This document shows positions 1-16,031 of a stretch of 64,000 nucleotides of DNA, one piece after another. The position numbers and the translations under genes were made by a program. Position 1 is the first letter of the stretch, and every line of letters starts with the position of its first letter. Source of the stretch: Marinobacter mangrovi (GTDB lineage Bacteria; Pseudomonadota; Gammaproteobacteria; Pseudomonadales; Oleiphilaceae). The notes beneath the pieces are model-generated. The model did not search any database and was not told where the DNA came from. It saw only the letters and a program-made list of their open reading frames with translations. The stretch covers positions 455,608-519,607 of the forward strand of contig NZ_JAERVO010000003.1 of NCBI RefSeq assembly GCF_016798325.1, in the 5' to 3' direction.

Positions 1-1409
1 CCTACGCGTTGATGCACGAAGCCAATGCGGCCGACCTGGACAGCCAGCGCAGCGACTACGAACACTACGACTACCCGGGCCGCTTCAAGGGCGATGCCTC
101 CGGCCAGCCCTACACCGAAGCGAGACTGGACAGCCTGCGCAAGGACGCCAGCCTCGGAAGTGGCGAGAGCAACCGCCCGGACTTCAGCGCCGGGGCCAAG
201 GTCACCCTCTCCGGCCACAGCACCGACAGCCTCAACCGGGACTGGCTGATCACCACCGTCAAACACACCGGCAAGCAGCCCCAGGCGCTGGAAGAGGAAG
301 GCGGTTCCGAGCCCACCACCTACAGCAACACCTTCAAGAGTGTGCCGGGGGATACCGCCTGGCGGCCGGAGCCGCCCGCCAGACCGATCATGGACGGCCC
401 GCAGATCGCCATCGTCACCGGACCCCAAGGTGAAGAAATCCACTGCGACGAGCACGGCCGGGTCAAGGTCCGGTTCCCCTGGGACCGTTACAGCCAGAAC
501 GACGAACACAGCAGCGCCTGGCTGCGGGTCAGCCAGGGCTGGGCCGGGGGCAGCTACGGCTTCATGGCGTTACCCCGCATCGGCCACGAGGTCATCGTCT
601 CCTTCCTCGATGGCGATCCGGACCAGCCGATCATCACCGGGCGCACCTACCACGCCACCAACACGCCGCCGTATGCGCTGCCGGAGCACAAGACCCGCAC
701 GACCTTAAAGACCCAGACCCACAAGGGCGAGGGCAGCAACGAACTGCGCTTCGAGGACGAGGCGGACAAGGAACAGATCTACGTCCACGCCCAGAAGGAC
801 CTGGACCTGCTGACCGAGAACGACCGCACCGAGGTGGTCCACAACAACAGCCACCTGACCGTCGACAACGACCGCTACGCCCACATCCAGGCCAACGACC
901 ACAGCACCATCGATGGGGAGAAGCGGGAGAAGGTGTGCCAGGACCACAGCTTCGACGTCACCGGAACGATCCACCTCAAAGCCGGCAGCGCCTGGCTCAG
1001 CGAATCCGGACAGGAACTGCACATCAAGGCGGGCCAGAAAGCCGTCATCGAAGCCGGCGCCGAAATCACCCTCAAAGGCGGCGGCAGCTTCGTCAAGATC
1101 GACCCCAGCGGCGTGGCCCTGAGTGGTCCGGCGATTAACCTCAATGCGGGTGGTTCGGCGGGGAGTGGATCGGGGCAGGGCGTTAAGGTGCCGGACGCGC
1201 CCCAGACCCTGGAAGCGCATAAGGGCGAGAAGGTCGAGCCCGAGGTTCTGGCTGAAGTCGGTCAACGCCCTGTGGCCAAGCCCGTGGTCATACACCGCCT
1301 TAAACAGGCGCGAATTCAACGCTCAGCTTTGGTGGAGCAATGCCAGGAGCAGCCCGATGGTACCTGCCCTCTGAGTGACTGCCCTTGCGGCAAGTCTTCA
1401 GTCGTATAG
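1..1409 (+). CDS. vgrG: T6SS spike protein VgrG, C-terminal portion (5' end lies upstream of window)
   Basis: ORF 9..1409 open to window edge; VgrG C-terminal region with 'GRTYHATNTPPYALP', 'LRFEDEADKEQIYVHAQKDLDL' and later VgrG-like repeats; Gly/Ser-rich tail. Confidence 0.85.
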   Translation, partial: YALMHEANAADLDSQRSDYEHYDYPGRFKGDASGQPYTEARLDSLRKDASLGSGESNRPDFSAGAKVTLSGHSTDSLNRDWLITTVKHTGKQPQALEEEGGSEPTTYSNTFKSVPGDTAWRPEPPARPIMDGPQIAIVTGPQGEEIHCDEHGRVKVRFPWDRYSQNDEHSSAWLRVSQGWAGGSYGFMALPRIGHEVIVSFLDGDPDQPIITGRTYHATNTPPYALPEHKTRTTLKTQTHKGEGSNELRFEDEADKEQIYVHAQKDLDLLTENDRTEVVHNNSHLTVDNDRYAHIQANDHSTIDGEKREKVCQDHSFDVTGTIHLKAGSAWLSESGQELHIKAGQKAVIEAGAEITLKGGGSFVKIDPSGVALSGPAINLNAGGSAGSGSGQGVKVPDAPQTLEAHKGEKVEPEVLAEVGQRPVAKPVVIHRLKQARIQRSALVEQCQEQPDGTCPLSDCPCGKSSVV

Positions 1410-1421
1410 GCGAGGGCGATC

Positions 1422-1985
1422 ATGAAACCAAAGCTGAACAGCAAGACTGTATTCGTCATTATCGAGGGTCATCCGAAGCGGCCTGTTCTGCCAGGACTGT
1501 ATGACCTTGAGCCGCAGCCCCATTGGCAGTACCTGTTTGCGGATACGGAGTGGGCCTCCTACCAATCGGAAAGCCCTTTAGTGATAAAGATCGATGCCGG
1601 CTCACCGTTTTTGCGAAGCGTTATAGATGATATGCAAAGCCCGGAAGGCTGGCGTGGTCTGATCCTGGAGTCGCAGGACGATTTCGATACCGTATTGTCC
1701 TGGGCCCGGCAACGACTGACCGTCGTCTTCGACCCACCTCGAACCGGACTGCTGCGCTACTACGACCCACTGATTTGGCACGCTCTCTGTACAACCGGAG
1801 AAAGGATAGGGGAGACCATCCAGCACGGGCACTACTGGGTGGAAGACGTGGAATCAGGGGCATGGCACTCGTTGGAATATCCGGAGCCGGTAGCCGACCC
1901 TACCAGACCCAGCCTGAGTTCGTCGCAGCTTCAGGCGATTACAGTTCTAGCAAGTCGCCGCAACAACGGCCAGCCTCGCAGTTAA
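1422..1985 (+). CDS. DUF4123-family T6SS effector adaptor/chaperone (Tap/Tec-like)
   Basis: 187 aa directly after vgrG; motifs matching DUF4123 ('SPLVIKI', 'WARQRL', 'LRYYDPLIW'); canonical position between vgrG and cargo effector. Confidence 0.7.
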   Translation: MKPKLNSKTVFVIIEGHPKRPVLPGLYDLEPQPHWQYLFADTEWASYQSESPLVIKIDAGSPFLRSVIDDMQSPEGWRGLILESQDDFDTVLSWARQRLTVVFDPPRTGLLRYYDPLIWHALCTTGERIGETIQHGHYWVEDVESGAWHSLEYPEPVADPTRPSLSSSQLQAITVLASRRNNGQPRS

Positions 1986-1997
1986 AGGAAGACAAGG

Positions 1998-4900
1998 ATG
2001 TCAGAAAACCAAACGAACCAAGCTTCAGCCAGCACTGGCCCAGCCTGTGAAGGCGAGAACCTGATCATTGAAGTCATTGGTAAGAACCATCCTGAGGGTC
2101 AGTCATTTCGTCTTTTCGACACCACGAATATGGTTCAGCAGGAGTGGTTAGAGAATCAGGTCAAAACGGAAGAGTTGGACGACAGTATTCTCCATGTCTG
2201 GCCTATGAAAGGCGAAGATGACAAAAACGTCTGGTTGGAAATGGCCGCGGATGAAGGCGATCCAATCCGGGTACCGTTCCTGAAGGAGGAGGGGGCTGTC
2301 GAACGACAGTCTGAGCGCCAGAAGCATGTCATTCTCCCGGTAGTGCCGGCGACGTTGATCCAGGGGGTAACCCTGAAGGAAAGTAACCCGGCCCATCACG
2401 TCATGCTGCGTGCAGGATTTCTTTACATATTTCATGAAGGAAAGCTCTGGAGAGAAATTGAAGTCCGAATCTCTGAAAAAGGTGTGACGACTTACCACGA
2501 TGTACCGGTATCGCAGTATCGAGCAGAAGGCGGGTTTGAGTATGGTTCCCGGAAAGCGACGGGCACCGGTCTGACTGAGATTTGGTTGCCTGCTCGCATA
2601 AATGGTGCTTGGCTGGATATACAGGTGGCCTACAGTGAGTTTCAACTGCCTTCCGCCCGTTTGAGGTACTTCGAAAAATCGGGCCGAAATCGCGAAGACC
2701 GGTTCAACTTCATTCATCTTGAGCTTGAAAGGCCAGATACCGAGGAAGGTGAAACGCGTCTGTTTGGCACCGGACCTGATCATGCTTTCCTCGCCGAGAA
2801 TCTCAAACCCCAGCGCCCTCGCAAACCGGCAGTAGAGTGGCAATGTGACCGTCCTGGTCGCTACCTGTGTGACGTTAATGGTGAATATCCCAAAGCAAGT
2901 TGGAATGACGCCAAAACGATTCATCAACGGCAAGAGTCCCAAGAGCTCGAGGACGAGATATACGAGGACGAGCGTCCGGAAATGGGCGCTTTATCGCTTT
3001 GCCTTGAAAGAACCTTGGAAGAACTGGAAAGCAGCAACGACAACGCAGAGGAAGCAAGGCAAGAGGATCAGAGCGATAACGCCGGGTCTTCGGAGCCCTC
3101 ACTCTGGGAATCAGGCGGTCAGTGTGTTCCTGACGCTTTGCAGGATGCACGGGATCGAGGCATTGGATGCATCTCGGTAGACGATGGCATTTATCGTCTA
3201 CGCTATCTTACCCAGCGAAAGTTGATAGCTGACTGGTTCAACAGTGCGGCGGTAAGAAGGGCCAAATGTCGGCCCTATTTCGATTCGGCATTTCTTGTCC
3301 ATTCCACCATCGTGCCTTCCGACTTCGATGGTAAGCCAAACCCTCTCCACAAGTTTATTTCAGAGCTATCTTCGACGGGCCGCAATGAAATTGATCGTTC
3401 GGTTGCGAACTCTGAACGGACGATGGCGCAACGGTATTTTGAGCATCTCCAGCGTGACTTACTGGTCGCCGTTAACAATATTGGAATACAAAGCGCGTTG
3501 ACCGATATGTTTACGTGCGATGGTTTCGACTACGCCGGAGCGTTTCAGTTCGTCAGCGGTATCATGAAGGATCTGGTAAAAGACTCTCGCGAAGCCGATG
3601 CACTGAACCTGCACAAAGGCGACACCTCAGAAAACGATGCAAAGCAATGGTTTCGAGGCTTTTGTCGGGGCGAGAACAGTGCTTCGCTCTTTAGCATTCT
3701 TTTCCCCAAGGCAACTCCCGAAACGCTCGAATCCCCTTACGTTGTGCCAGATGAGCCGGAAGAAAACGATGGCAGCGGTCTGTTTCGCGGGACCGAACTG
3801 GCGAAGCTGGAGAATGCGGACTTGCCCAAAGTTGAAGACGTCCAAACATTTCACGGTCTCGAACTCGTTGCGGCCGCACATGAGGGCGTTTTTACGTCGA
3901 TGCTGGCATTTTACGTGCGGGCCGGTAGTGGGATTCTGATGAATATCCACGGCGAGCTTTGGTCAGCCATTCATGACGCTGAGAAAAAGCTGACCGATGA
4001 CCCTGAGTTCAAGAAGAAGCGCCAGGAGTTGGTCGATCTCGACAAGCAGCTGAACGAAGTCAATGACGAGCGAGGGAACCTCAGAAAACAAAGAGCGGCC
4101 GCCCGGAATACCGTCGCAAGAGTGGATGAACTGTATGAAGAGCTTGGCGAAAAAAAAAGGAACTTGCAGCAAGCCAGGCAAGTAAAGGCAAGACAACTGA
4201 ATGAGATCAATAGCAAGGCTGTAACCGCAAAGATGCGTTTGTACGCGGCGTCTCTCCAACAAATTCGAGCTTCACTCCCCAATTTTTGGGGTGAAATGAC
4301 TTTTGAGCGTCTGTCCAAAGCTCTACAAAGTGATTACTACGTGATCGGCTGGCTGGATGATTTGGGCGATGAATCGAACACCAATCAAGGTGTTCGGGTT
4401 TTTGGTGACATCTTTGATGAAAGCACCGAAGAACGAACGTCCGTCGCATCGACAAATAGAAGACGGGCAAACGCCCAAGGCATTGACTCGGAAGCGCCAG
4501 AAGAAGCGCGGCTTCTGGTTTTACCGAAGAGCGCCAAGGCGGCAAAGGCTCTGCTCGAACTCAGCAGCAAGGAAAGTGCGGTCATCGCGGCAGAGAAGCA
4601 AGCAGAGGCGGCCAAGAAGGCTTTCGTTGAAGGGGGGCACGCTGGTACCAACGCTCGGCAGCGTCTTCAAACTGCAACTGAACAACTTGATGAGGCAAAT
4701 AAAAAGTTCAAGGAGCTTACATCACGCATGGGGTCGCTGCGGGAGGATGTAGATGCCCCTCAAAAGGTCATTGCCGAGACGAAGGGTGGGGTGGCATATC
4801 GCTCTTTGAACACGCCTGTTTTACCTGCGTTTGTGATGTTGGTAGAAGTTTATAATTTTTCTGCCAACTATAGCAGTTACGACGCCCTAGAAAGGAAGCG

Positions 4901-6062
4901 AGGCGTAATAAGAGCTTTCGGGGGGCTAGGAAGTGCTGCATACGATTTAACTCTTACCGCAAGTATACTCGCAGAGCGATTTCAGAATGCGATACCCAAA
5001 CAGCTTGGCCGAACGAGTCGATTAGTTACTGCGATGTCTGCGAAGCTGGATAAGGAGGTTAGCGGTCGAATAGGCTTATTACTAGCGAGGTTGGCAGGCG
5101 GACCGGTTGTGATGAGAGCGGCGCTTGGTGCAGCAGGTGCTTTGGCTACCGGTTTTATATTTCTGTCCGACGCCTTCCATGCTTTTGATATGGGGAACAC
5201 AGGGGTTGGCATTGGTTACAGTTTGCTTGCAGCAGGCAGTTTTGCGATGGCCATCAGTAGTGTTGGGGCCACTCTTCTGTTTATCGGCCCCTTAGGGTGG
5301 ATGGCGATCGGCATTGCTCTATCCATTGCTGGAGCACTTGGCGTTTGGTGGTTCAGCGAAGACCCCATAGAGACCTGGATGAGTCAGGGGCCGTTTGGCG
5401 ATTCAACGGAGCTGTCTTTTCTTAAAGACCCTGACGAGTCGTACTACCGGTTGATTAGCCTGTTAATGGGCGTGCGAATCTCTTGGGAGTCCAACCAGAA
5501 ACGAGCCGAGGTGCTTAAGGGCACCATTGAGAGCGAAGGCAAGCTGCTGGAAGCGCAACTTGAAGCCGATTCCTGCCTACGGATTGAGAGTCCCATTCCC
5601 GGTTTGTTCGAGGATTCAGAGAAGAAAAGATTGGATGCTTACTTGCGTCTTGTAGAAAAAGTTGATGCGCACGTTGAATCCAGCCCTTCTGAAAAAACTG
5701 GGAGAGGTCGGTTTGAGTTGCCGCCAGGACAACGCCTTATTGAGGGCGAAGAATTGAAAAAGTACGCCTTGTTCAGGGAGAAGATAGATAACGGATGGTT
5801 GGTTTATTTAAAGACTCCCAAGCCTCATAGAGTTGAAAAGAAAAGCTGGTTCGGAGGCACGCGAACAAACTTGTATACCTATGCGTGGAGCGTAAGGGCT
5901 CAGATTCATGTTCAGGACGATGGGCGTGATGTGGTGTTCCCGGCACCGCCACCGGACGATCCGTTGACATATGATAAGGCTGATCCGGAGCATACAACGC
6001 CAGATTTTTCAGAAACAGATAAAGACTTTTGGTTCGATGAACAGGTTAATCAAGATGGATGA
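1998..6062 (+). CDS. Large T6SS cargo effector (1354 aa), VasX-like: MIX-like motif, central coiled coil, C-terminal glycine-zipper transmembrane cluster, conserved about 70-aa tail
   Basis: Follows vgrG + DUF4123; 'LRAGFLYIF' fits the hRxGhhYhh MIX core (nt 2406-2432); Lys/Glu/Gln-rich coiled coil about 3960-4750; hydrophobic Gly/Ala-rich helices about 5064-5355; last 70 aa recur as remnants at 17569-17797 and 43334-43540. Confidence 0.6.
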   Translation: MSENQTNQASASTGPACEGENLIIEVIGKNHPEGQSFRLFDTTNMVQQEWLENQVKTEELDDSILHVWPMKGEDDKNVWLEMAADEGDPIRVPFLKEEGAVERQSERQKHVILPVVPATLIQGVTLKESNPAHHVMLRAGFLYIFHEGKLWREIEVRISEKGVTTYHDVPVSQYRAEGGFEYGSRKATGTGLTEIWLPARINGAWLDIQVAYSEFQLPSARLRYFEKSGRNREDRFNFIHLELERPDTEEGETRLFGTGPDHAFLAENLKPQRPRKPAVEWQCDRPGRYLCDVNGEYPKASWNDAKTIHQRQESQELEDEIYEDERPEMGALSLCLERTLEELESSNDNAEEARQEDQSDNAGSSEPSLWESGGQCVPDALQDARDRGIGCISVDDGIYRLRYLTQRKLIADWFNSAAVRRAKCRPYFDSAFLVHSTIVPSDFDGKPNPLHKFISELSSTGRNEIDRSVANSERTMAQRYFEHLQRDLLVAVNNIGIQSALTDMFTCDGFDYAGAFQFVSGIMKDLVKDSREADALNLHKGDTSENDAKQWFRGFCRGENSASLFSILFPKATPETLESPYVVPDEPEENDGSGLFRGTELAKLENADLPKVEDVQTFHGLELVAAAHEGVFTSMLAFYVRAGSGILMNIHGELWSAIHDAEKKLTDDPEFKKKRQELVDLDKQLNEVNDERGNLRKQRAAARNTVARVDELYEELGEKKRNLQQARQVKARQLNEINSKAVTAKMRLYAASLQQIRASLPNFWGEMTFERLSKALQSDYYVIGWLDDLGDESNTNQGVRVFGDIFDESTEERTSVASTNRRRANAQGIDSEAPEEARLLVLPKSAKAAKALLELSSKESAVIAAEKQAEAAKKAFVEGGHAGTNARQRLQTATEQLDEANKKFKELTSRMGSLREDVDAPQKVIAETKGGVAYRSLNTPVLPAFVMLVEVYNFSANYSSYDALERKRGVIRAFGGLGSAAYDLTLTASILAERFQNAIPKQLGRTSRLVTAMSAKLDKEVSGRIGLLLARLAGGPVVMRAALGAAGALATGFIFLSDAFHAFDMGNTGVGIGYSLLAAGSFAMAISSVGATLLFIGPLGWMAIGIALSIAGALGVWWFSEDPIETWMSQGPFGDSTELSFLKDPDESYYRLISLLMGVRISWESNQKRAEVLKGTIESEGKLLEAQLEADSCLRIESPIPGLFEDSEKKRLDAYLRLVEKVDAHVESSPSEKTGRGRFELPPGQRLIEGEELKKYALFREKIDNGWLVYLKTPKPHRVEKKSWFGGTRTNLYTYAWSVRAQIHVQDDGRDVVFPAPPPDDPLTYDKADPEHTTPDFSETDKDFWFDEQVNQDG

Positions 6063-7110
6063 TGCGCCGGCAATGACAGGTGGGGATGGTCTTTATTATG
6101 GGAATGCAGCCTACCATCCGGAAAAGCTACCAAAGCAGCGACCGCAACTCTTGGATCCCAATCAGTCGGCTTTAAAGCGCATGGCGTCAGCCCGGTTGCC
6201 GTGGGGACATGCCGACAACGTCGTCCCTGACCGAGTCTTCTCAGTCGCTACCCCAAAGGCTCTGCGTGAAATTGAGCGACATGGCAGTCTGTTGGACAAT
6301 ATTGATGATCAAGGGGAAATGGATCATGAGTGCTTTCGCTTTGCGCCGTTAGCGAAAAGGGTTCAGATACTGGATTTGATGGAGGGTCTATCTAAGCTTG
6401 CTGTTAAAATTTTGGTTCCACTTACGATCGTTACGTTGCTATTAGCTTGGTCTGCAACTTCGAACGATGCTTACTGGCAAGATATCATCAATCACTGGTT
6501 TTTTTTCGCGTGTCTGCTTGGGATTCCTGGAGGAATCTGGTTGGTATCGGACTTGCTGATCAAGTACTGTCTCGGCTGGATTCTGAAATCCGGAAAAGGC
6601 CCGATATGGGAGTTCAATCGACGCACGGGCATGGTAACCGTCTGGAAATATCCATTTAAAATCCCGTTTATTCCTCGCGGCAAACCAGAGACCAAGCAGT
6701 TCCCGTTTATAGAGTTCGATGCCTGGGTCAGTGCCCGAGCCGACCGCTACGGCGCTTTGAATCGACTGCGGCTCTTTCATCGGTATAGCCCATGCGAGGT
6801 CGACATCGGAGCGGCTACCGGCGATCACAGCATGCCAGAGTCCTGTTATGCGATGTGGGATTTTATCCAGAACTATATGGACGTCACTCGGCCACTGCCC
6901 GATATCCCCGTGTTGGAACCCCATCGCCACAAGGACCCGGTGACTGTCGAATACGACCGTCGAACCAATCGCCCTGAACGTTATTGGCGTGATATGGACG
7001 ATGAGACATTCAAGGCGTGCGAAAACGAAATGAGCCTCAATGTGCGAATGATGAGCATGCAGAGCCGGGACAATATCATGGCCGGAAAGGTGGTTTACAC
7101 GAGCAGTTAG
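6037..7110 (+). CDS. Cognate immunity protein candidate (family A1), two TM helices + conserved C-terminal domain; start overlaps effector 3' end
   Basis: ATG 6037 inside the last codons of the effector (stop 6060-6062). N-terminal 'AAYHPEKLP' motif, two TM helices, then 'FIEFDAWVS' and 'YAMWDFIQNYMDVTRPLPDIPVLEPHRHKDPVT' shared by 7 paralogs in the window. The track start 5971 is an upstream extension. Confidence 0.55.
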   Translation: MNRLIKMDDAPAMTGGDGLYYGNAAYHPEKLPKQRPQLLDPNQSALKRMASARLPWGHADNVVPDRVFSVATPKALREIERHGSLLDNIDDQGEMDHECFRFAPLAKRVQILDLMEGLSKLAVKILVPLTIVTLLLAWSATSNDAYWQDIINHWFFFACLLGIPGGIWLVSDLLIKYCLGWILKSGKGPIWEFNRRTGMVTVWKYPFKIPFIPRGKPETKQFPFIEFDAWVSARADRYGALNRLRLFHRYSPCEVDIGAATGDHSMPESCYAMWDFIQNYMDVTRPLPDIPVLEPHRHKDPVTVEYDRRTNRPERYWRDMDDETFKACENEMSLNVRMMSMQSRDNIMAGKVVYTSS

Positions 7111-7145: not shown

Positions 7146-7424
7146 TTAGCAGAACCCTGCTACGCCCTTTGGGACTTCGTACAAAACTACATGGATTTGA
7201 CCCAGCCCTTGCCCGATATCCCGATCTGGGAAGCCTACGGCCACCTGGACCCGGTCACAGCAGAGAACGACCGGCAAACCAATCGCCCGGAACGCTACTG
7301 GCGCGATATGGACGACGACACCTTCAAGGCCTGTGAGCGCGAGATGCACTATCGAGTCCACGCACTGCGCACCCTGAGCCGACCGAACATCATGGCCGAG
7401 AAGACGGTTTACGCGAGCTACTAG
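7146..7424 (+). pseudogene. 3' fragment (about 90 codons) of a displaced A1-type immunity gene
   Basis: From 'EPCYALWDFVQNYMD...' to '...KTVYASY*', near-identical to the C-termini of 17772..18848 and 43515..44588; no matching N-terminus; junction with upstream gene at 7111-7150. Confidence 0.6.
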
Positions 7425-7475
7425 CCGTTACACGGTTAATCGTTGAGTGGTTTCCCAGGGAAGGGAAACTGAAAT

Positions 7476-7511: not shown

Positions 7512-8435
7512 ATGCCCACCCCGCTGTACCAGCGCTGGCTGCCAATTCTGTTTGGCCTCGCCCTGCTATTCCCCGCTTCCGAACTCCACGCCGAAAAACC
7601 ACAACTCACCCTGGCCCAGGTCTACGAAAAGGGCGATGCCCTCAAAGGCTACTGGGTCAGCGAAAAACTCGACGGTGTGCGGGCCTACTGGGACGGTGAG
7701 CACCTGATTTCGCGTCAGGGCCATGCGTTTCATCCGCCGACCTGGTTTACCCGGGATTTTCCGGAGGTACCTCTGGATGGCGAGCTGTGGATGGGACGCG
7801 GGACCTTTTCCGAGCTGTCCGGGGTGGTGCGCAAGCTGGAGCCGGTGGACAGCGAGTGGCGGCAGGTGCATTACGAGATTTTTGATCTGCCCGGGAGTGA
7901 TCGCCCGTTTTCGGAGCGGGTGGCGCGCATGCGGTCGCTGCTCAAGCCTTCGCCATCACCCTACCTCGTTATGATCGAACAGACGCCGGCAACCACGCGG
8001 GCGGCGTTGATGGCGCGTCTGGACGAGGTGGTTGATGAGGGCGGTGAAGGGCTGATGCTACATCGTGGCGGTGCCCTGTATGAAGCCGGTCGCTCGGACG
8101 ATTTGCTGAAGGTGAAGCGGTATCAGGATGCCGAGGCCACGGTGGTGGGCTATTCGCCGGGGCAGGGGAAATACGAGGGCATGCTGGGCGCACTGGTGGT
8201 GGAGCGTTCCGATGGCCGCCGGTTCAAGCTGGGTAGCGGGTTCAGTGATGAGCAGCGTGCGGATCCTCCGGCGATCGGGGCGACGGTGACTTACAAATAT
8301 TATGGGCTGACGTCGACCGGATTACCGCGGTTCGCGAGTTTTATGCGGGTCCGGAATGAAGAGCCGGTCGGAAATGGGGGCAGACTCTGCGCGGCATTCT
8401 GTTCGACAAAGTCGCCACATGATGCTGCTCGATGA
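7512..8435 (+). CDS. Periplasmic ATP-dependent DNA ligase, LigE-like (copy 1, intact)
   Basis: N-terminal signal peptide 'LPILFGLALLFPASELHA'; motif I 'KLDGVRAYWDG' (KxDG adenylation lysine), 'EGLMLH', 'LLKVKR'; about 300 aa, typical of signal-peptide-bearing minimal ligases. Confidence 0.75.
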   Translation: MPTPLYQRWLPILFGLALLFPASELHAEKPQLTLAQVYEKGDALKGYWVSEKLDGVRAYWDGEHLISRQGHAFHPPTWFTRDFPEVPLDGELWMGRGTFSELSGVVRKLEPVDSEWRQVHYEIFDLPGSDRPFSERVARMRSLLKPSPSPYLVMIEQTPATTRAALMARLDEVVDEGGEGLMLHRGGALYEAGRSDDLLKVKRYQDAEATVVGYSPGQGKYEGMLGALVVERSDGRRFKLGSGFSDEQRADPPAIGATVTYKYYGLTSTGLPRFASFMRVRNEEPVGNGGRLCAAFCSTKSPHDAAR

Positions 8436-8486: not shown

Positions 8487-9485
8487 ATGATGGAGGCATA
8501 CCAGCCAACGGCTTATCGGTTCGATGATATTCCGATTTTACCCAGCGGCGGGCATCCAAAGTTGGATAAGGTATTTGAGCGGCTCTCTTGGGGGCATTAT
8601 CAAACGCCAGTCGTACCTAATGCGGTGGAAGTGCAACTTGCCTATGCAAGTCTTTTCAGTAACGAAAATGACGCTGAGGATGGATTTCCTTGGAATGAAG
8701 AAAGTTTTTCTATAGGTAAAGGGTTTTTAAATGGTTTTCAGTCTTTGTTGTATATGATTCATATATGCGCTGTTCTTTTGTTTTATCTCGCTTTATTTCC
8801 CCTTTTTTTTAGCATTATTTTTTATTTTGTTGATGAATTGAGGTTGTCCGCGCTGTATACTATTGCTCAAAGTTTCACTATTATGTAGGTGGTTATAGCG
8901 GCGCTATACGTCCTAGGGAAGTATGGAAGGCTATTGTTGGCTCAAGTTTCCGAAAAAGCGCAAAGAGCAAATCCAACAGGTCTCTATCGTCGCGAAGGGT
9001 TGGTCCGCATAAAAAACCGGAAAGAGGTTTTTACCGCACCCTTTATCGAGTTCGATGCCTATTGTGTCCATTCCCCTTCCGGCCGTGGTAGTCGCTATTA
9101 CAATCTTGTCCTCCAGCATCGCTACAGCGAGGAACAGCTTTGGATGAAAGGACTGCTAACCAATGCGATGAATCCGCAAGATGTCTACGCCTACTGGGAC
9201 ATGGTCCAGCAGTTCATGGACGTGAGTCACCCTCTGCCGGACGTGCCGGTTTTTGAGCCCTTCCGTCATCGCGATCCAGTAACCGCCGAAGAGGACGCCC
9301 GTACCGGGCGTGATCCATTCCATTGGCGCAAAATCACGCCGGAATCCTGGCGGGAGCATTACGAATCAAAATATCGAGCGCGACTACTCAACGCAAATTG
9401 GAATCGCCCCTGCATTATGGATGCTCGTATTGAAGGCAGGGGGATACCCGCCAATGAACCGCCCCGCGGTAGTATCCTGGCCTGA
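8487..9485 (+). pseudogene. A2-type immunity paralog interrupted by an in-frame TAG (8886-8888)
   Basis: ORFs 8487..8888 and 8889..9485 are in the same frame, split by a single amber codon; together colinear with the intact paralog 42284..43309 ('DIPILPSGGHPKLDKVFERL', 'YAYWDMVQQFMDVSHPLPDVPVFEPFRHRDPVTAEEDARTGRDPFHWRKITPESWREHYESKYRAR'). Confidence 0.55.
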
Positions 9486-9588: not shown

Positions 9589-10608
9589 TTGACTGATCCT
9601 GAGAAGAGTGAACATAGCGGGGCTTCATACTCGGAAACGGCCTATCGCTCCGATGCCTTGCCGCGCCAGGCCCCGCTGAGTGATCCGGGTGGTTTTGCTC
9701 GCACCCTGGAAGGGCTGAATTTTGTCGAGCGGCTGCCTACTGGCAGTTACGCTGGTTTAGACGGGGACGTTAGCCCAGACGTTGTGAAGCATTTTCAGGA
9801 TCGGGCACAAGGTGAAATGAACTTGGCTGGCCCTCCCTGGGATCATAAAGGGAAGCCGGCCAATCTCATTAAGACGCGCTGGGAAATTATACTAATGTTT
9901 GCCGGTACTCTTGGAGATAGGTTCGTTTTCGGTTTTTTTTCGTTCGCTTGTTTAGGCAGTTTTCTTATAGGCATATGCGTTGCTGATTTTTTTATTACAT
10001 TGAAACTTATTTCAATATTGTTTTTTGGTTTGGTAATTCTTCATATTACTTTTCGTTATCCCTTCATGTGGCTCTTGGAGCGCTATCCAGAGATCATGGT
10101 TCGCGATCTCGGTTGCGGTTTTTTCCGTACGACGGGAAAAATCAAATTCCGCACCTACTGGGGTAAGGAAACCTTCGAGGCCCCCTTCATCGAGTTCGAT
10201 CCTTATATCGCCTATCACGTCCAACCGAATGGCCCGGTGAGCTATAAGCTGGTTCTTCGACACCGTTATCGGGGGCGTCAGACGGAGGTGGCTACCGTTC
10301 CGCAGGGACGAAAGACCGAGCTCTATGCCGTCTGGGACCAGTTGCAGCGCTACATGGACGTGAGCCAGCCCCTGCCGGATATCCCGGCCCTGGAAGCCTA
10401 CCGGTCCCTCGACCCCACAACCGCGGCCTATGATGCCGCCGGTAAGCGGGGTCGACCTGCGGATTATTGGGTCACACTGGACCTGGACTGGTGGAAACGG
10501 GAAGGGTATCCCGAGCACATGACAAAGATCGCTGAATTCCCGTGGGACAGTCTCGAAGACAAGATGGAACAGAGTGTGCCAAACCTGCGCGAAGCGGCCA
10601 TGGTTTAA
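9589..10608 (+). CDS. Immunity-family paralog A3 (divergent member; TTG start likely)
   Basis: 'YSETAYRSDALP' N-motif, TM segment, 'FIEFDPYIAYH', 'YAVWDQLQRYMDVSQPLPDIPALEAYRSLDPTT'; preceded by the about 170-nt junction also found at 42170-42340. Confidence 0.5.
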   Translation: MTDPEKSEHSGASYSETAYRSDALPRQAPLSDPGGFARTLEGLNFVERLPTGSYAGLDGDVSPDVVKHFQDRAQGEMNLAGPPWDHKGKPANLIKTRWEIILMFAGTLGDRFVFGFFSFACLGSFLIGICVADFFITLKLISILFFGLVILHITFRYPFMWLLERYPEIMVRDLGCGFFRTTGKIKFRTYWGKETFEAPFIEFDPYIAYHVQPNGPVSYKLVLRHRYRGRQTEVATVPQGRKTELYAVWDQLQRYMDVSQPLPDIPALEAYRSLDPTTAAYDAAGKRGRPADYWVTLDLDWWKREGYPEHMTKIAEFPWDSLEDKMEQSVPNLREAAMV

Positions 10609-10678
10609 ACACTGACATCACCGCAAATAGCGTTACTCAATGACGTCCCATGGACGGGACGCTAAGTCGCAAGCAAAC

Positions 10679-10704
10679 CCTTAATTCACCACAAGGACCG
10701 TGAA
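10679..10704 (+). repeat. Ligase leader repeat (copy 2)
   Basis: 'gcaagcaaacccttaattcaccacaaggaccgtgaaatgcc' core. Confidence 0.75.
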
Positions 10705-10953
10705 ATGCCAACCCCGCTGTACCAGCGCTGGCTGCCAATTCTGTTTGGCCTCGCCCTGCTGTTCCCCGCGTCTGAACTCCACGCCGAAAAAACGCAACTC
10801 ACCCTGGCCCAGGTCTACGAAAAGGGCGATGCCCTCAAAGGCTACTGGGTTAGCGAAAAGCTGGACGGTGTGCGGGCCTATTGGGACGGCGAACACCTGA
10901 TTTCCCGCCAGGGCCATGCGTTTCATCCGCCGACCTGGTTTACCCGGGATTTT
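10705..10953 (+). pseudogene. LigE-like ligase copy 2, truncated after codon 83 by the IS21-family remnant
   Basis: Identical N-terminus through 'PPTWFTRDF'; nucleotide identity to copy 1 ends at 10953, where the track ORF (to 11067) runs on into unrelated IS-derived sequence. Confidence 0.7.
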
Positions 10954-11067
10954 GGCGGTGTTCCGGCCAGCGTCCTGGTCGATAACCAGAATGCCGCGGT
11001 GGTTCGACACGACCGGGATGGCAAGATCGTCTTCAACGCCGGCTTCCTGGAACTGGCCAACCATTAA

Positions 11068-11604
11068 GGCTTCGCCGCCCGGGCCTGCCGGCCCAGGACC
11101 AAGGGCAAGACCGAGCGCATGGTGAGCTACGTGAAGCACCACTTCTTCCAGCGCTATCGCAGCTTCGACAGCTACGCGCACCTGAACCAGTTACTGGAAC
11201 AGTGGTTGAGCAGCTATGCCCGTCAGCGGAGATTACGCCAGTTCCAGCAATCTGCGGCTCAGCGCTTCGAGGAAGAGCTCCACCAACTCAGCCCTCGTCC
11301 GGCAACGGACGTCGATACCCGCTATTACGACATCCGCCATGTGGGCTGGGATGCCTACATCGATGTGCGGGGCAAACGTTACAGCGTACCGGCCGAGTGT
11401 TGTGGTCAACGGGTCAACATCCTCATGAGCCTGGACGGTGAACTCACCGTCTACGACCTCCGGGGCCAGGAAGTCGCCCGTCACCGGATGACCGATCGCA
11501 GGCAAGGCTGGCAAACCGTCGCTGAACACCACGAGCCGCTGTGGCAAGAGGTGATGCCCGTGCAGCGCCGAAGCCTGGCGGTGTATGAGGAGGTGCTGCA
11601 ATGA
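11068..11604 (+). pseudogene. istA: IS21 transposase IstA, C-terminal fragment only
   Basis: In-frame region begins right after a stop at 11065-11067 with 'ASPPGPAGPGPRTKGKTERMVSY'; catalytic N-terminal region missing. Confidence 0.65.
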
Positions 11605-12402
11605 ACCTGGACCAACTCCTAGGCCGGCTCAAAATGGACCATCCGCAAGCCTCCCTGGATACCCTGTGCGAACACGCCAGCAAGAAGGACCTGAACTACC
11701 GGGAGTTCCTGGAACAGGCCCTGGCCCAGGAATGGGGTGGCCGCCACCAGAAAGGCCTGGACACGCGCCTCAAGCAGGCCCGGCTGCCCTGGATCAAAAC
11801 CCTGGAGCAGTTTGACTTCAGCTTCCAGCCGAGCATTGACCGCAAGCTGGTGCGGGAACTCTCCGGCCTGGGGTTCGTGGAGCGCAACGAGAGTGTGATC
11901 CTGCTGGGGCCACCGGGTGTGGGCAAAACCCACCTGGCCGTCGCCCTAGGCGTAAAGGCTGCTGAAGCGGGCCATCGCGTCCTGTTCATGACCCTGGATC
12001 GCCTGGTGAGCACACTGGTCAAAGCCCGGCAGGAAAACCGGCTGGACCGACAGCTTCAACAACTGATCTACCCAAAGGTGCTGGTGCTTGACGAGATCGG
12101 TTACCTGCCCATGACCCGGGAGGAGGTCAGCCTGTTCTTCCGTCTGATCAACCGGCGCTATGAGCGAGCCAGCACCATCCTGACCTCGAACAAGAGCTTT
12201 ATGGACTGGGGTGAGGTGTTGGGACCAGGTCATTGCCACCGCCATTCTGGATCGGCTGTTGCACCACTCAACGACTCTGAACATCAAGGGCGAGAGCTAC
12301 CGGCTAAAGGACAAACGGAAGGCCGGCCTTGTTCCCGGTACGAGCCAACAACAGGAGGTCTCTGACGACGCTGAGCCTCAAAAACCGGACACTGAAAACT
12401 GA
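11601..12402 (+). pseudogene. istB: IS21 helper ATPase IstB with a frameshift near codon 205
   Basis: ATG overlaps the istA stop (ATGA). The conserved C-terminus 'VIATAILDRLLHHSTTLNIKGESYRLK' continues in a different frame (ORF 12211..12402) after about nt 12215-12235. Confidence 0.65.
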
Positions 12403-12456: not shown

Positions 12457-13011
12457 CACTACTGGGATGAACAGTCCAGGCCATCGAACACGGAGCTGCT
12501 GGAGGACAGCAGAACCATCGCATCCCCGGACGATGGCGGGAAAGTTCGTAAATATTTTGAAGCGGAGCTGGATGCATTCTATTACATGCTGTTTTCGCCC
12601 ATAGTGCGAATAACCGAACACATGCCCAGGTATTGGGATACGACCCGGCAGGGGGAGCTTAAGGTCCTGTCGGAGTTCACGAGCTTTGCAGTGTACTTTC
12701 CGGGATACAGTGAAGGGACATGTGTCGTTTCTATAAAACTGTTCGAGGCGAATACCCACTGGTTCTCAGATGACGATTCAAATGAAATTAGCCACTTGTT
12801 CGATGACCGAAAGAGACAAGAGTCCGCTTCCCATGGTCTGCTTTACCGGTTTACTCACTACAATCACAACAAGTGGGAACAACTGGAAATGCTGATTGAA
12901 TACGAGAAGGATGGCCGGAAGGTTACCGGTGAAAACGGGCTCAGAATTATTCTGGACGGTAACGACGTGGAGGAACTGGGTGTCGATGAAAGACTCGCCT
13001 TTGAGGTGTGA
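12457..13011 (+). pseudogene. 3' fragment of a second (family-B-associated) effector-like gene, 5' part removed by the IS21 remnant
   Basis: Frame open without a start from 12457 (just after the IS end); first ATG 12586; its last about 35 codons ('...IEYEKDGRKVTGENGLRIILDGNDVEELGVDERLAFEV') recur upstream of each downstream tandem paralog. Confidence 0.4.
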
Positions 13012-13861
13012 TTTTCCGGAAACGGACCTGGAGCAACAGCTGGAAAAGAAGCGGTACCGTACTCATGGTGCACGGCTCGCCAGCCCCCCAGCCAGAAAGG
13101 TGGCGGGAGTGTCCGATTCTTCGGAAGATATGGACCAAGGCGTTGCTTTCATTAGTGAAGGGTTCATGGACATTAGGACTGCCTTCTTGTCTCTTCGAAG
13201 GGCCATACCAGCCATCATAAATCTGTTCATGATCATTGTCCTGCTGTTGGGCTGGGTCGTTAGCTTGTTCTTTTCAAAGGCTTTACTCGGAGTATTGATT
13301 GCTTTTGGTCCTGTCTGGGTGGCCGTCTACCTGTTCGAGATCTTCTTTCCGTACACGCTGCCGGTCCGGATCGACCTTAAGGAGGGGGTCGTCTACATAG
13401 GGCACCGCGGCACCTTCTACAGGATTCCCTGGGACGAGCTGGAAGTGACCTTTTCCTACAACTGGCAGTATCTGGGCTCTGGCGTAGTGTGGGAGCGGCA
13501 GTACTACGCCCACATATTCATGCGGGAAAAGCATTACTTTTGTGGGAAGCGCCCTAAGATGCCTCTGCAGCGCAAGAAGGTTTTTTCCGGGTTTAAGGAG
13601 GAGGATATGTATCGGAAATGGAACTTTATTGTCAGGTATTACAACGACGGGGTTGTTGAAAAAGACATCGATCATCTCGCCGGGATGAATTTTGACTCGC
13701 TTCGTAAGGATCTAGCTTCCAGTTCAATAGGAAAACGCATAGTCGAGTATTCTCTTCTCATTCTGCTTATTCCGACCATAATATGGTCGAAGTATACACC
13801 CTTAAAATACAAGTGGCCGAAAGAGATTGAAGAGATTTTTGGGAAGATTAACTATTACTGA
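12986..13861 (+). CDS. Family-B candidate immunity membrane protein (tandem copy 1 of 4)
   Basis: ATG 12986 overlaps the 3' end of 12457..13011; 'MKDSPLRCDFPETDLEQQLEKK', two TM helices, 'GHRGTFYRIPWDELEVTFSYNWQYLGSGVVWERQYY'. Confidence 0.5.
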   Translation: MKDSPLRCDFPETDLEQQLEKKRYRTHGARLASPPARKVAGVSDSSEDMDQGVAFISEGFMDIRTAFLSLRRAIPAIINLFMIIVLLLGWVVSLFFSKALLGVLIAFGPVWVAVYLFEIFFPYTLPVRIDLKEGVVYIGHRGTFYRIPWDELEVTFSYNWQYLGSGVVWERQYYAHIFMREKHYFCGKRPKMPLQRKKVFSGFKEEDMYRKWNFIVRYYNDGVVEKDIDHLAGMNFDSLRKDLASSSIGKRIVEYSLLILLIPTIIWSKYTPLKYKWPKEIEEIFGKINYY

Positions 13862-14001
13862 TCCAGTAATCGAGGTTTTCCTGACACTGCGTTCTGCCCT
13901 ATTGAACTGACGACTGAGTTAGAAGGATGGCCGGAAAGTCACGGGTGAAGACGGGCTCCGTATCATCCTGGTCGGTAACGATGTGGAGGAACTGGGTGTC
14001 G

Positions 14002-14877
14002 ATGAAAGACTCGCCTTTGAAGTGTGATTTTCCGGAAACAGATCTGGAACAACAGTTGGAAAAGAAGCTGTACCGCACTCATGATGCGCGACTCGCCAGC
14101 CCGCCAGCCAGGAAAGTGGCAGGGGTGTCGGCTTCCTCGGAAGGAATGGAGTATGGTGTCGCCTACATCAACCAACGGTTCATGGACATCCGCACGGCTT
14201 TCTTGATCTTTAGGCGATTCCAATTGGCTATTGTAAATCTGTTCATGATGATTGTCTTGACATTGGGCGGGGGGCTTAGCCTGTTTTTTTCAAAGGCACC
14301 GTTGGCAGTCTTGGTTACTTTTGGGCCTGTCTGGGCGGCCATCTACCTGTTCGAAATTTTCTTCCCGCTCACGCTGCCCGTGCGGATCGACCGCCAGGAA
14401 GGGGTTGTGTACGTAGGGCACCGGGGGACTTTTTACCGGATTCCCTGGGACGAACTGGAAGTGACCTTTTCCTACAACTGGCAGTATCTCGGCTCCGGGG
14501 TTGTATGGGAGCGGCAGTACTATGCCCATCTGTTTATGCGGGAGAAGCATTACTTTTGCGGGAAGTCCCCCAAGATGCCCTTGCAGCGTAAAAAAATCTC
14601 TTCCGGGTTTAAGGAAAAGGATATGTATCGGAAATGGAATTTTATTGTCAGGTATTATAACGAAGGAATGGTTGAGGAGGACGCTGACAATCTTGTTATG
14701 GCTAATTACGATACATACCGTAAATACATAACCCAAAAATCATTGGGGAGGCGTATTTTTAGTTACTTGTTGTTTCTTGTATTTATGCCAACCATGATTT
14801 GGTGGAAATTTACCCCTTTCAAGTACAAGTGGCCGAAAGAGGTTGAGGAGGTTTTTGGGAAGGCTAACAATTACTGA
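14002..14877 (+). CDS. Family-B candidate immunity membrane protein (tandem copy 2)
   Basis: Paralog of copy 1; preceded by the remnant 'KDGRKVTGEDGLRIILVGNDVEELGVDERLAFEV*' (13925-14029). Confidence 0.5.
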   Translation: MKDSPLKCDFPETDLEQQLEKKLYRTHDARLASPPARKVAGVSASSEGMEYGVAYINQRFMDIRTAFLIFRRFQLAIVNLFMMIVLTLGGGLSLFFSKAPLAVLVTFGPVWAAIYLFEIFFPLTLPVRIDRQEGVVYVGHRGTFYRIPWDELEVTFSYNWQYLGSGVVWERQYYAHLFMREKHYFCGKSPKMPLQRKKISSGFKEKDMYRKWNFIVRYYNEGMVEEDADNLVMANYDTYRKYITQKSLGRRIFSYLLFLVFMPTMIWWKFTPFKYKWPKEVEEVFGKANNY

Positions 14878-15018
14878 TTCCGGGTTGAAAATTTCCTGTC
14901 ACCGCGCTCTACCCCATTGGACTGCGGATCGAGTATGAGAAGCATGGCCGGAAAGTCACGGGTGAAGACAGGCTCCGAATTATTCTGGACGGCAACGATG
15001 TGGAGGAACTGGGTGTCG

Positions 15019-15891
15019 ATGAAAGACTCGCCTTTGAGGTGTGATTTTCCGGAAACGGACCTGGAGCAACAGCTGGTAAAGAAGCGGTACCTCACCCATG
15101 GTGCGCGGCTTGCCAGTCCGCCGGCTCGGAAAGTGGCGGGGGTGTCCGATTCCTCGAAAGAGATGGACTATGGAGTCGCCTGCATCAGCGAGAGGTTTAT
15201 GGATATCCGTACCACCTTCTTGTCTTTTAGAAGATCCATTCCAGTGATTGTGAGTATGTTCATGATTATTGCCTTGGCGGTAGGCTGGGTTGTTAGTCTG
15301 CTCTATTCAAAGGCACTGCTTGGGGTGCTGCTCGCCTTCAGCCCAGTCTGGGTAGCCGCCTATCTGTTTGAGTTTCTGTTTCCGTACACTCTGCCGGTCC
15401 GGATCGACCGGCAGGAGGGATTTGTTTACGTGGGGCACCGGGGTACCTTCTACCGGATTCCTTGGGACGAGCTGGAAGTGACTTTTTCTTATAATTGGCA
15501 GTATCTGGGCTCAGGTGTTGTGTGGGAGCGGCAATATTACTCCCACCTATTCATGCGGGAAAAGCATTACTTCTGCGGGAAGCCTCCCAAGATGCCCTTG
15601 CAACGCAAGAAAATTTCTTCCGGGTTTAAGGAAGGAGATATGTATCGAAAATGGAATTTTATTGTCAGATATTACAACGAAGGAGTTGTTGAAGAGGATG
15701 AAGAGAATCTCTATGGAGCAAATTTCGACTCTTACAATCAGCATGTGAAGGGCCAAACGGGACGACGTGTTTTCGGTAATGTACTCTTCTTATTATTTAT
15801 GCCGAGTATCGTATGGTCTAAATATAGTCCGTTTAAATATAGATGGCCGAAGGAAATTGAAAATATATTTGGAGAGTTTGATTATTACTGA
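15019..15891 (+). CDS. Family-B candidate immunity membrane protein (tandem copy 3)
   Basis: Paralog; preceded by the remnant 'IEYEKHGRKVTGEDRLRIILDGNDVEELGVDERLAFEV*'. Confidence 0.5.
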   Translation: MKDSPLRCDFPETDLEQQLVKKRYLTHGARLASPPARKVAGVSDSSKEMDYGVACISERFMDIRTTFLSFRRSIPVIVSMFMIIALAVGWVVSLLYSKALLGVLLAFSPVWVAAYLFEFLFPYTLPVRIDRQEGFVYVGHRGTFYRIPWDELEVTFSYNWQYLGSGVVWERQYYSHLFMREKHYFCGKPPKMPLQRKKISSGFKEGDMYRKWNFIVRYYNEGVVEEDEENLYGANFDSYNQHVKGQTGRRVFGNVLFLLFMPSIVWSKYSPFKYRWPKEIENIFGEFDYY

Positions 15892-16031
15892 TTTAGTAAT
15901 CGAAGTTTTCTTAACATTGCGCTCTGCCCTAGTGAACTGACGGCCGAGTGAGAAGGATAACCGGAAAGTCACGTTTGAAAACGGGCTCCGAATTATTCTG
16001 GATTGAAACGATGTAGAGGAACCGAGTGTCG

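Follow-up and report, generated by a model that had tools for sequence, protein, structure and literature searches.

A VgrG-linked cargo module with a probable VasX/BTH_I2691-type toxin and its candidate immunity gene in Marinobacter mangrovi

A stretch of 64,000 nucleotides (64 kb) of the genome of Marinobacter mangrovi (contig NZ_JAERVO010000003.1, positions 455,608 to 519,607; hereafter the window) begins with four genes related to type VI secretion systems (T6SS). Bases 1-7110 probably (we put it at about 0.8) constitute a functional VgrG-dependent T6SS cargo module, made of a spike gene, an adaptor gene, a gene for a pore-forming toxin of the VasX/BTH_I2691 type, and the cognate immunity gene, here called immA. 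An earlier note on this DNA had placed four open reading frames (ORFs) in the region, and the ORF map and translations agree with it on their positions. All are on the forward (+) strand:

1..1409, +, 3' part of vgrG (tssI), in frame from base 3, stop codon at 1407-1409; the left window edge cuts the gene, leaving the C-terminal 468 codons
1422..1985, +, DUF4123 adaptor (Tap), 187 amino acids (aa)
1998..6062, +, cargo effector, 1354 aa
6055..7110, + (alternative starts 6037 and 5971), candidate cognate immunity gene immA, 351 aa, with a hairpin of two transmembrane (TM) segments between soluble N- and C-terminal domains

Organization of the module

The genes are tightly packed. Twelve nucleotides (nt) separate vgrG from the adaptor gene, and 12 nt the adaptor from the effector gene, while effector and immA overlap (-8 nt); sequences resembling Shine-Dalgarno sites are present. 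The overlap of the immunity gene with the effector had been noted before, and stands; the start assigned to it at 6037 is probably not the right one. The ORF downstream of the effector is open from 5971, and in most homologues, as in the 351-aa NCBI protein P0046, the start corresponds to the ATG at 6055. On these comparisons the latter is the most likely start of immA, which gives an 8-nt overlap, ATGGATGA, with the effector stop. A scan of bases 1-8600 for promoters and terminators gave counts no better than chance. Here and below, L-numbers denote related loci in other genomes (L001 is the M. bohaiensis locus), P-numbers relative proteins.

The gene order proposed in the earlier note (vgrG, then the DUF4123 adaptor, the MIX cargo effector, and a membrane immunity gene that overlaps it) was borne out by comparison with other genomes. 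The arrangement (hcp)-vgrG-tap-effector-immunity is kept in M. bohaiensis, Pseudomonas chlororaphis and Halomonas, and recurs in Marinobacter vgrG loci carrying related effectors, for a total of more than 20 loci.

Assignment of the effector to the VasX/BTH_I2691 superfamily

The effector is annotated as "hypothetical protein" in M. mangrovi (100% identity), as is its M. bohaiensis counterpart (88% identical). Relatives have been sorted into 45 clusters, mostly from Marinobacter. Distant relatives reside in P. chlororaphis, P. citronellolis, Pseudoalteromonas and Halomonas/Billgrantia, and one Pseudoalteromonas protein (P0034) is labelled "toxin VasX". The NCBIfam model BTH_I2691_fam (NF041559) matches residues 814-1140 (E 5.8e-15), along model positions 544-841 only, and is matched also by 24 of 24 aligned relatives (best E 1.6e-19). 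All scores fall under the curated cut-off, hence the name "hypothetical protein" given to these relatives by NCBI. The Pfam model VasX_N (PF20249) matches residues 134-239 (E 2.4e-4) and 17 of the 24 relatives (best E 2.9e-7), and PF20249 annotation is found precomputed on three distant relatives. Since BTH_I2691_fam is matched by all relatives and VasX_N by most, and both scores of the effector itself fall below the cut-offs, the effector is, by profile comparison, a coherent and divergent branch of the VasX/BTH_I2691 superfamily missed by curated models. Profile-profile alignment with hhalign showed the subfamily to be homologous, over the full length and with 100% probability, to the 1200-aa-type effectors and to those paired with the immD and immE types of immunity gene described below.

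The MIX-like motif reported previously about 140 residues from the N-terminus was recovered by pattern search: the core hRxGhhYhh is present as LRAGFLYIF at residues 137-145, and R138, G140 and Y143 are invariant in the 24 relatives. The N-terminal flank (motif shhPhR) reads VILPVV at residues 111-116, with P114 invariant and the Arg absent. The C-terminal flank (motif hhF/YSxxxWS/T) reads VAYSEFQLP at residues 210-218, with the Y-S pair kept and the Trp changed to Leu, the family consensus being AYSExQWP (motif definition in PMC12909789).

Searches of the structure database gave little. The effector family profile, run against PDB sequences, returned coiled-coil noise plus 9r8g_A, a weak and not significant match (E 0.3) to the TM domain of Tke5; phmmer searches of the same sequences with the effector N-terminus found no match, and neither did Foldseek comparison of the effector model with the PDB (best E 0.21).

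Modular structure of the effector

Residues 155-1354 have been modelled by AlphaFold2 (AF2) from a 44-sequence alignment. The protein can be divided into six regions, listed below with the predicted local distance difference test (pLDDT) values of the model:

1998..2327, +, residues 1-110, conserved N-terminal extension preceding the MIX motifs
2328..2732, +, residues 111-245, MIX domain; core motif at nt 2406-2432, flanks at residues 111-116 and 210-218
2733..3917, +, residues 246-640, alpha-helical scaffold; AF2 helices (275-640), pLDDT mostly 75-90
3918..4802, +, residues 641-935, predicted antiparallel coiled-coil stalk and tip; AF2 pLDDT 55-79, Rad50/SMC-type matches
4803..5387, +, residues 936-1130, Gly/Ala-rich hydrophobic helices; putative membrane-inserting (pore-forming) domain
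5388..6059, +, residues 1131-1354, beta-rich C-terminal domain; AF2 strands (1145-1350), pLDDT 75-88

Residues C17, E18, L22, V26, G28, H31, E58, H66, W68, W79 and P89 of the N-terminal extension are invariant across 24 relatives. The long coiled coil described in the earlier note corresponds to the A/E/K/R-rich residues 650-935, which draw Rad50, SMC and CCDC22 coiled-coil models; as signs of kinship, these matches were rejected as spurious. In the AF2 model the stalk is made by a very long helix (residues 642-739), a beta-rich tip (742-843), and long returning helices (847-916). In shorter homologues both arms of the stalk, residues 641-740 and 846-935, shrink (37-80% gaps), and the tip, residues 741-845, is kept (3-10% gaps). 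The joint shrinkage of the arms backs the predicted stalk independently of the AF2 model.

The hydrophobic helices near the C-terminus, rich in Gly and Ala as the earlier note had it, are found at residues 936-1130. The region contains 27% Gly+Ala, features Kyte-Doolittle hydrophobic segments at residues 1025-1120 and hydrophobic AF2 helices at 941-1130, and lies within the BTH_I2691_fam match. The beta-rich domain which follows occupies the position of the Ig-like membrane-binding domain in the effectors Tke5 and Ptx2. By AF2 and hydropathy, and with moderate confidence, the effector thus follows the plan of the superfamily, with a MIX domain, an alpha-helical scaffold around Gly/Ala-rich TM helices and a beta-rich C-terminus, to which the stalk/tip insertion is added. 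From characterised members the effector departs chiefly by this insertion and by its conserved N-terminal extension of 110 aa.

The spike protein and the adaptor

The 468 visible residues of VgrG match TIGR03361 with E 1.4e-117 (393.5 bits, cut-off 186), and the Pfam families Phage_GPD, Phage_base_V and Gp5_trimer_C, all above cut-off. Identity to the vgrG copies of other Marinobacter measures 64-92%. The protein ends (window positions 1200..1409) with a Gly/Ser linker followed by a Cys-rich C-terminal tail, CQEQPDGTCPLSDCPCGKSSVV; a portion of the tail, EQCQEQPD, served as search pattern in the scan of Marinobacter vgrG genes. The Cys-rich tail may be an adaptor-docking or metal-binding element.

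The adaptor matches Pfam DUF4123 (PF13503) over residues 11-125 (E 1.4e-12, 48.3 bits, cut-off 25.8) and, under cut-off, the NCBIfam model Tla1 (E 1.5e-13). Identity to its orthologue in M. bohaiensis is 72%. In Marinobacter loci with related effectors the adaptors repeatedly measure 176-189 aa, and those of P. chlororaphis and Halomonas 252-264 aa. At 187 aa, the M. mangrovi adaptor is about as long as Tap3's N-terminal domain, which comprises residues 1-198; Tap3 measures 307 aa and, like Tap6, is bilobed, with a helical C-terminal lobe that varies. The idea that the N-terminal extension of the effector compensates for a short adaptor is unsupported, as P. chlororaphis relatives combine the extension with a 264-aa adaptor.

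The candidate immunity protein

The immA product is identical (100%) to P0046. At 90% clustering it has 198 homologues, none with a Pfam domain. The wider family comprises 527 representative clusters at 50% identity, mainly from Marinobacter, Stutzerimonas, Pseudomonas and Halopseudomonas. In every relative examined the gene lies directly 3' of the effector.

Two TM segments had been noticed in the protein before, and two hydrophobic helices were indeed found, at residues 111-137 and 149-170 of the 351-aa form. The AF2 model (pLDDT 85, predicted TM-score (pTM) 0.81) features an N-terminal region, a long TM hairpin (helices 101-134 and 148-171), a five-stranded antiparallel sheet and, at the C-terminal end, a helical portion. 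The charges run +3 before the first TM segment, none in the 13-residue acidic loop, and +5 after the second segment. By the positive-inside rule, the predicted topology is N-in/C-in, with the loop in the periplasm and both soluble domains in the cytoplasm.

The earlier note had held that both effector and immunity protein might be new, which is not supported. The effector belongs to the divergent VasX/BTH_I2691 branch described above, and immA to the 527-cluster family, probably distant kin of the DUF6708 immunity proteins. DUF6708 (PF20455) was not matched at E<=10 by immA or by the four other intact immA-family paralogues of the window, nor at E<=0.1 by 34 remote members of the family. In hhalign comparisons, however, remote members aligned with the DUF6708-like paralogues described below with a probability of 89% (E 2e-6, 168 columns), compared with only 10.6% for the closer immA set. 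The alignment spans the TM hairpin and the motif pairs NRRTGMVT/IDRKEGVVYV, PFxEFD/IPWDEL and WDFLQxYMD/WNFIVRYYN. The immA family shares with DUF6708 immunity genes also the coding of a membrane protein right after a BTH_I2691-type effector, often in arrays. On these sequence comparisons, the distant relationship to DUF6708 is probable but not proven.

A block at residues 260-330 of immA, WDFIQNYMDVTRPLPDxPxxExxRxxDPVTAEHDxxTxRPxxYWRDMDD, is near-invariant, though the family pairs with very different effectors. Such conservation is unexpected for a domain dedicated to specificity only, and suggests a conserved partner or activity. One remote member of the family carries an FGE-sulfatase domain (9.3e-44), another ankyrin repeats. 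As a protein of the FGE fold has been reported as a widespread T6SS immunity type (PMC13340143), these proteins may be fusions of two immunity modules.

Sequence divergence among relatives

Relative to the M. bohaiensis orthologues, the ratio of nonsynonymous to synonymous substitution rates (dN/dS) is 0.13 for the effector and 0.13 for immA. By this measure both are under purifying selection, and are therefore real genes and not chance ORFs. In the same comparison, dN peaks in the hydrophobic domain of the effector (0.165) and in the TM hairpin of immA (0.266), and is 0.046 in the C-terminal domain of immA. This pattern of divergence points to the hydrophobic domain of the toxin and the TM hairpin of immA as the site of effector-immunity specificity.

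Synonymous divergence (dS) from the M. bohaiensis effector (L001, 1659-5723) is uneven, with the lowest value, 0.19, at residues 241-640, and 1.14 at residues 936-1130. The metagenomic relative P0003 is 98% identical to the effector over residues 1-110 and 55% identical overall. The uneven dS and the contrast seen in P0003 indicate recombination inside the effector gene. The former is also a sign of mosaic history, with the immunity gene travelling together with the hydrophobic and C-terminal domains.

Genomic setting of the module

The earlier note had called the module auxiliary. The genomic data do not favour this: in other Marinobacter genomes, at least 14 of them, the genes for ClpV, VasH, VasI, TssA (ImpA/VasJ) and TssM lie directly upstream of the homologous vgrG, and in five of those (L009, L011, L024, L028, L030) a DNA ligase gene is also found downstream. 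The order VasH-VasI-VasJ(TssA)-TssM-VgrG in these relatives follows that of the large T6SS cluster of Vibrio cholerae. The M. mangrovi module is thus probably not an auxiliary unit standing alone but the variable 3' end of a main T6SS cluster, in a slot bounded by tssM-vgrG and a LigE-type ligase; the DNA upstream being outside the window, this placement rests on synteny with the relatives. No T6SS core gene was found within the window, which begins inside vgrG. The core genes are nonetheless unlikely to be lacking from the M. mangrovi genome, given their position beside the homologous vgrG throughout the genus. Past the ligase, no synteny with M. bohaiensis was found at either the DNA or the protein level.

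Mode of action and alternative explanations

The closest models are Tke5 (PDB 9R8G; PMC12909789) and Ptx2 (PDB 9QPV; bioRxiv 10.1101/2025.04.30.651342), in each of which a MIX domain is followed by a large alpha-helical scaffold, with Gly/Ala-rich TM helices enclosed in it, and by an Ig-like domain at the C-terminus. DUF4123 adaptors load the two toxins, which act from the periplasm, depolarise the inner membrane, and are neutralised by immunity proteins whose genes lie immediately downstream (PMC12909789, PMC13133200, bioRxiv 10.1101/2025.04.30.651342). Tki5, the immunity protein against Tke5, is membrane-bound, has a mass of about 35 kDa, and binds the TM region of Tke5 within the membrane (PMC13133200).

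For the M. mangrovi module we infer secretion, pore formation, function and topology of the immunity protein, and adjacency to a core cluster. By analogy with Tap3-Tke5 and Tap6-Ptx2, the adaptor would bind the MIX domain and tether the effector to the C-terminal tail of VgrG, and the spike would fire the toxin into the periplasm of a neighbour cell. There, by homology to VasX, Tke5 and Ptx2, the beta-rich C-terminal domain, possibly along with the stalk tip, would contact the inner membrane; the Gly/Ala-rich helices (residues 936-1130) would exit the scaffold and insert as an ion-conducting pore, and the membrane potential would be lost. The immA protein, a two-helix hairpin of the inner membrane, would neutralise the toxin either at the membrane or inside it, most likely by binding the inserting helices, as Tki5 does with Tke5.

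Several observations weigh against a functional pore-toxin module. The effector scores 54.9 bits against NF041559, under the curated cut-off of 150, and 21.6 bits against VasX_N, under the gathering score of 27. No direct link was detected by hhalign between the effector subfamily and the 969-aa, canonical-like Marinobacter effectors (probability 3.9%), so that the 1354-aa subfamily and the 969-aa effectors are connected solely via the NCBIfam model. The confidence of the AF2 effector model is moderate (pLDDT 72, pTM 0.59), and the model starts at residue 155. No Pfam match was obtained for immA, nor any structural relative of its soluble domain among solved chains, and TM segments can inflate a score such as that linking its family to DUF6708. 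No M. mangrovi TssM is found among the best 120 of 755 TssM matches, and the M. mangrovi genome is absent from the results of the VgrG-based genome scan.

The last two points, and the lack of core genes in the window, would be accounted for if the module were a genomic relic, its genes intact but served by no working T6SS or by a VgrG never fired, with the immunity genes alone of use, as a defence against neighbours. The surroundings, a graveyard of gene remnants, pseudogenes and an IS21 fragment, fit this explanation, and the 5' half of vgrG and its promoter lie outside the view, as the window opens inside the gene. We regard it as improbable: the four ORFs are intact, with coupled junctions, the low dN/dS holds over the whole 1354-aa effector, and TssM is widespread in Marinobacter and adjoins the homologous vgrG in the genomes mentioned above. 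About as improbable, or marginally more so, is an effector which targets membranes and forms no ion channel, being a lipid-binding or membrane-remodelling toxin, or one aimed at eukaryotic grazers, with the coiled coil and tip providing some other activity. VasX was reportedly first described against Dictyostelium; the 300-aa stalk/tip insertion is without counterpart in Tke5 or Ptx2, and the family scores below curated thresholds. Yet the dedicated membrane immunity gene and the arrays of orphan immunity genes indicate use of bacterium against bacterium, and the BTH_I2691_fam match falls on the hydrophobic domain, the one that diverges jointly with the TM hairpin of immA.

Even less credit is given to the notion that the two-TM protein is an accessory factor, such as a membrane chaperone or a regulator, rather than an immunity protein. 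It would fit a protein with no Pfam family and no structural relative, whose C-terminal domain is unusually conserved across effector types (dN 0.046), which is atypical for an immunity protein determining specificity. It does not fit a gene always immediately 3' of the effector and overlapping it, present as tandem orphan arrays behind effector remnants, and distantly similar to DUF6708 immunity proteins. Size and membrane location are moreover like those of Tki5 (about 35 kDa), and Tsi3a, a DUF6708 protein of 38.7 kDa, is similar in size to the 351-aa immA product.

Displaced cassettes in the window

The window contains nine intact immunity-like genes (five of the immA family, immA included, and four DUF6708-like), along with 3' remnants of three effector genes and recurrent ligase fragments; of all these, only immA figured in the earlier note. 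The elements found downstream of immA are the following:

7152..7425, +, C-terminal fragment of an immB/immC-type gene (pseudogene remnant), 94% nt identity to 18576-18849
7512..8435, +, LigE-type ATP-dependent DNA ligase, right flank of the effector slot (NF006592, 4.2e-114)
8487..9485, +, immD-type gene split in two ORFs (8487..8888 and 8889..9485), probable pseudogene, 81% nt identity to 42331-43272 (intact immD)
9589..10608, +, orphan immE, 339 aa, 28% identical to immA
10646..10965, +, N-terminal ligase fragment (recombination scar), 93% nt identity to 7453-7760
11119..12365, +, IS21 remnant, with a C-terminal fragment of IstA (Mu-transpos_C_2, 2.6e-13) and an intact-looking IstB (IstB_IS21, 2.2e-65)
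12460..13008, +, effector 3' remnant, 183 aa, of the 969-aa BTH_I2691-like type, 72% identical to residues 788-969 of the L026 effector
12896..13861, 13927..14877, 14917..15891 and 16026..16907, +, four tandem DUF6708-like orphans, 55-76% mutual identity
17014..17530, +, N-terminal ligase fragment (17014-17415; 95% nt identity to 7453-7854) fused to a C-terminal immE fragment (17416-17530; 98% to 10511-10625)
17564..17794, +, effector 3' remnant, the last 77 codons, same subfamily as the intact effector, 91% aa identity to its residues 1278-1354
17706..18848, +, orphan immB, 56% identical to immA, true start probably near 17772
42284..43309, +, orphan immD, 341 aa, 58-63% identical to immunity genes behind 1236-1285-aa effectors (L014, L016, L018, L019)
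43310..43537, +, effector 3' remnant, 53% aa identity to effector residues 1280-1354
43461..44588, +, orphan immC, 57% identical to immA, P0049 cluster
44676..45542, +, second full-length ligase copy, 97% aa identity to 7512..8435

For every orphan type, the cognate effector occurs intact in other species of Marinobacter (L014, Marinobacter sp. CHS3-4; L021, Marinobacter sp. DUT-3; L026, M. iranensis), and all these effectors match BTH_I2691_fam. The immE product is 50-72% identical to the immunity proteins encoded behind 1132-1176-aa BTH_I2691-like effectors (L007, L021, L022, L027, L029). Each DUF6708-like gene is preceded by an effector tail of 34-40 aa, and homologues follow 969-aa effectors in L024-L030 and related loci. 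On this evidence of position, the 969-aa effector is the cognate toxin type of the DUF6708-like genes. Pfam DUF6708 is matched just under cut-off (1.6e-5 to 1e-2) by three of the four tandem genes, 12896..13861 giving no match. The 969-aa L026 effector matches NF041559 at 9e-37, and the MIX domain of Ptx2 at 6e-6.

The 3' stubs of effectors that lie immediately upstream of the orphans, along with the intact cognate effectors found elsewhere, point to sequential displacement: the orphans, remnants and ligase fragments would be relics of earlier cassettes, each replaced in turn by homologous recombination. The IS21 remnant directly upstream of the stub at 12460-13008 is probably the trace of whatever event destroyed that effector. 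In L001, L008-L011 and L024-L030 a ligase gene comes after the immunity genes. In the window, the repeat 7152-8373 = 44316-45539 (96% nt identity) encloses the ligase copies and the 7152-7425 fragment. The ligase gene appears to be the right-hand recombination anchor of the effector slot, duplicated by cassette turnover. The retained orphan immunity genes plausibly protect against other Marinobacter strains.

The immunity/ligase blocks are split by about 23-24 kb of unrelated genes (window 18.9-42.2 kb). These include a yjf-like set (DUF1190, glutathionylspermidine synthase, PspA, DUF2170), a 1280-aa ankyrin-repeat protein (24573..28415, - strand), and, at 31028..38292, a 646-aa ORF without family followed by a 1745-aa DUF3686/DUF7902/AAA ATPase. 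PADLOC analysis of the neighbouring large ORFs gave no defence-system match beyond those driven by the ankyrin repeats.

Similar arrangements were observed in other genomes. In Halomonas alkaliantarctica (L004, 13539-21125), the effector is followed by immA-family matches at five places, made up of three ORFs of about 330 aa and of weaker matches over 150-aa ORFs, with ORFs of 180 aa in between. As this locus carries an orphan array too, such arrays appear to be general in the effector-immunity superfamily. In a Marinobacter metagenome-assembled genome (L012, 1998-11313), two consecutive tap-effector modules of the superfamily lie behind one vgrG; the tandem arrangement may be an intermediate of cassette displacement.

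Comparison with known systems

Tke5-Tki5-Tap3 of Pseudomonas putida KT2440, a member of the BTH_I2691 family, shares with the M. mangrovi module both the gene order and the plan of the effector. Ptx2-Pti2-Tap6 of Pseudomonas aeruginosa PA14 belongs to the VasX family. Ptx2 has no direct sequence match to the M. mangrovi effector, and has no coiled-coil/tip insertion in its deposited chain of 1192 aa (9qpv_A). For Pti2, the predicted contact is made by a beta-sheet with a "sensor region" of the scaffold; in M. mangrovi, the pattern of divergence favours the hydrophobic domain and the TM hairpin instead. With the founding member VasX-TsiV2-VasW of V. cholerae the module shares a MIX effector and, by prediction, DUF4123-dependent loading on VgrG and damage to the inner membrane. 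VasX (1085 aa) resides in an auxiliary cluster with VgrG-2, in contrast to the M. mangrovi module, which is probably located at the end of the main cluster.

In Stenotrophomonas rhizophila, vgrG and tap are followed by a BTH_I2691 effector (Tse3), its DUF6708 immunity gene tsi3a, and 12 tsi3 homologues (PMC13340143). The likeness resides in an effector followed by a long array of homologous immunity genes, in M. mangrovi the four DUF6708-like and five immA-family genes. The M. mangrovi cognate immunity protein differs in lacking a Pfam match to DUF6708, being linked to it by profile-profile comparison only (89%), and the arrays mix at least five immunity types with effector and ligase remnants. 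In the orphan immunity arrays of the V. cholerae T6SS, 3' stubs of displaced effectors precede the orphans, as one would expect if recombination at the conserved flanks replaced one cassette after another (Kirchberger et al. 2017, PMC5361080). The M. mangrovi arrays share the pattern of stubs before orphans, and differ in having an apparent ligase anchor, itself duplicated and fragmented, and in being located at two sites, 18.8 and 42.3 kb into the window and 24 kb apart.

In colicin Ia (PDB 1CII), a long antiparallel coiled-coil hairpin bears the receptor-binding domain on its tip and the helical pore-forming domain at its base. The effector model has a similar stalk and tip before the hydrophobic domain, with low confidence in the stalk. 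The likeness is an analogy only: Foldseek gives E 1.7, no significant structural or sequence match is found, and the secretion and uptake systems are different. A bolder model-based proposal would make residues 641-935 a true antiparallel coiled-coil stalk of tunable length, bearing a conserved beta tip, and serving as a colicin-Ia-like module for receptor recognition or reach, new among characterised T6SS pore-formers. Immunity would correspondingly act from the cytoplasmic face and the membrane interior, through the TM hairpin and a highly conserved cytoplasmic domain of a fold unseen among solved structures. This proposal is doubtful, and we rate it well below even odds; if true, the target range of the subfamily would be set by a protein receptor, and not by lipids alone.

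Concluding remarks

The module does not overturn the current understanding of T6SS pore-formers, and is best seen as a useful but expected variation on a known kind of toxin. It stands out by the stalk/tip insertion, by its short adaptor, by an immunity family which has no name and whose predicted cytoplasmic domain is strikingly conserved, and by an unusually legible graveyard of immunity genes. The VasX/BTH_I2691 superfamily, whose first structures and mechanisms date to 2025-2026, is extended by a marine subfamily missed by the curated NCBIfam and Pfam models, and an unnamed family of membrane proteins, 527 clusters in size, is probably linked to the DUF6708 immunity proteins. In its immunity genes of at least five types, its effector stubs and its ligase scars, the locus clearly records the natural turnover of cassettes, and is suited to asking which parts of toxin and immunity protein set specificity, and whether orphan immunity genes protect M. 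mangrovi against other Marinobacter.

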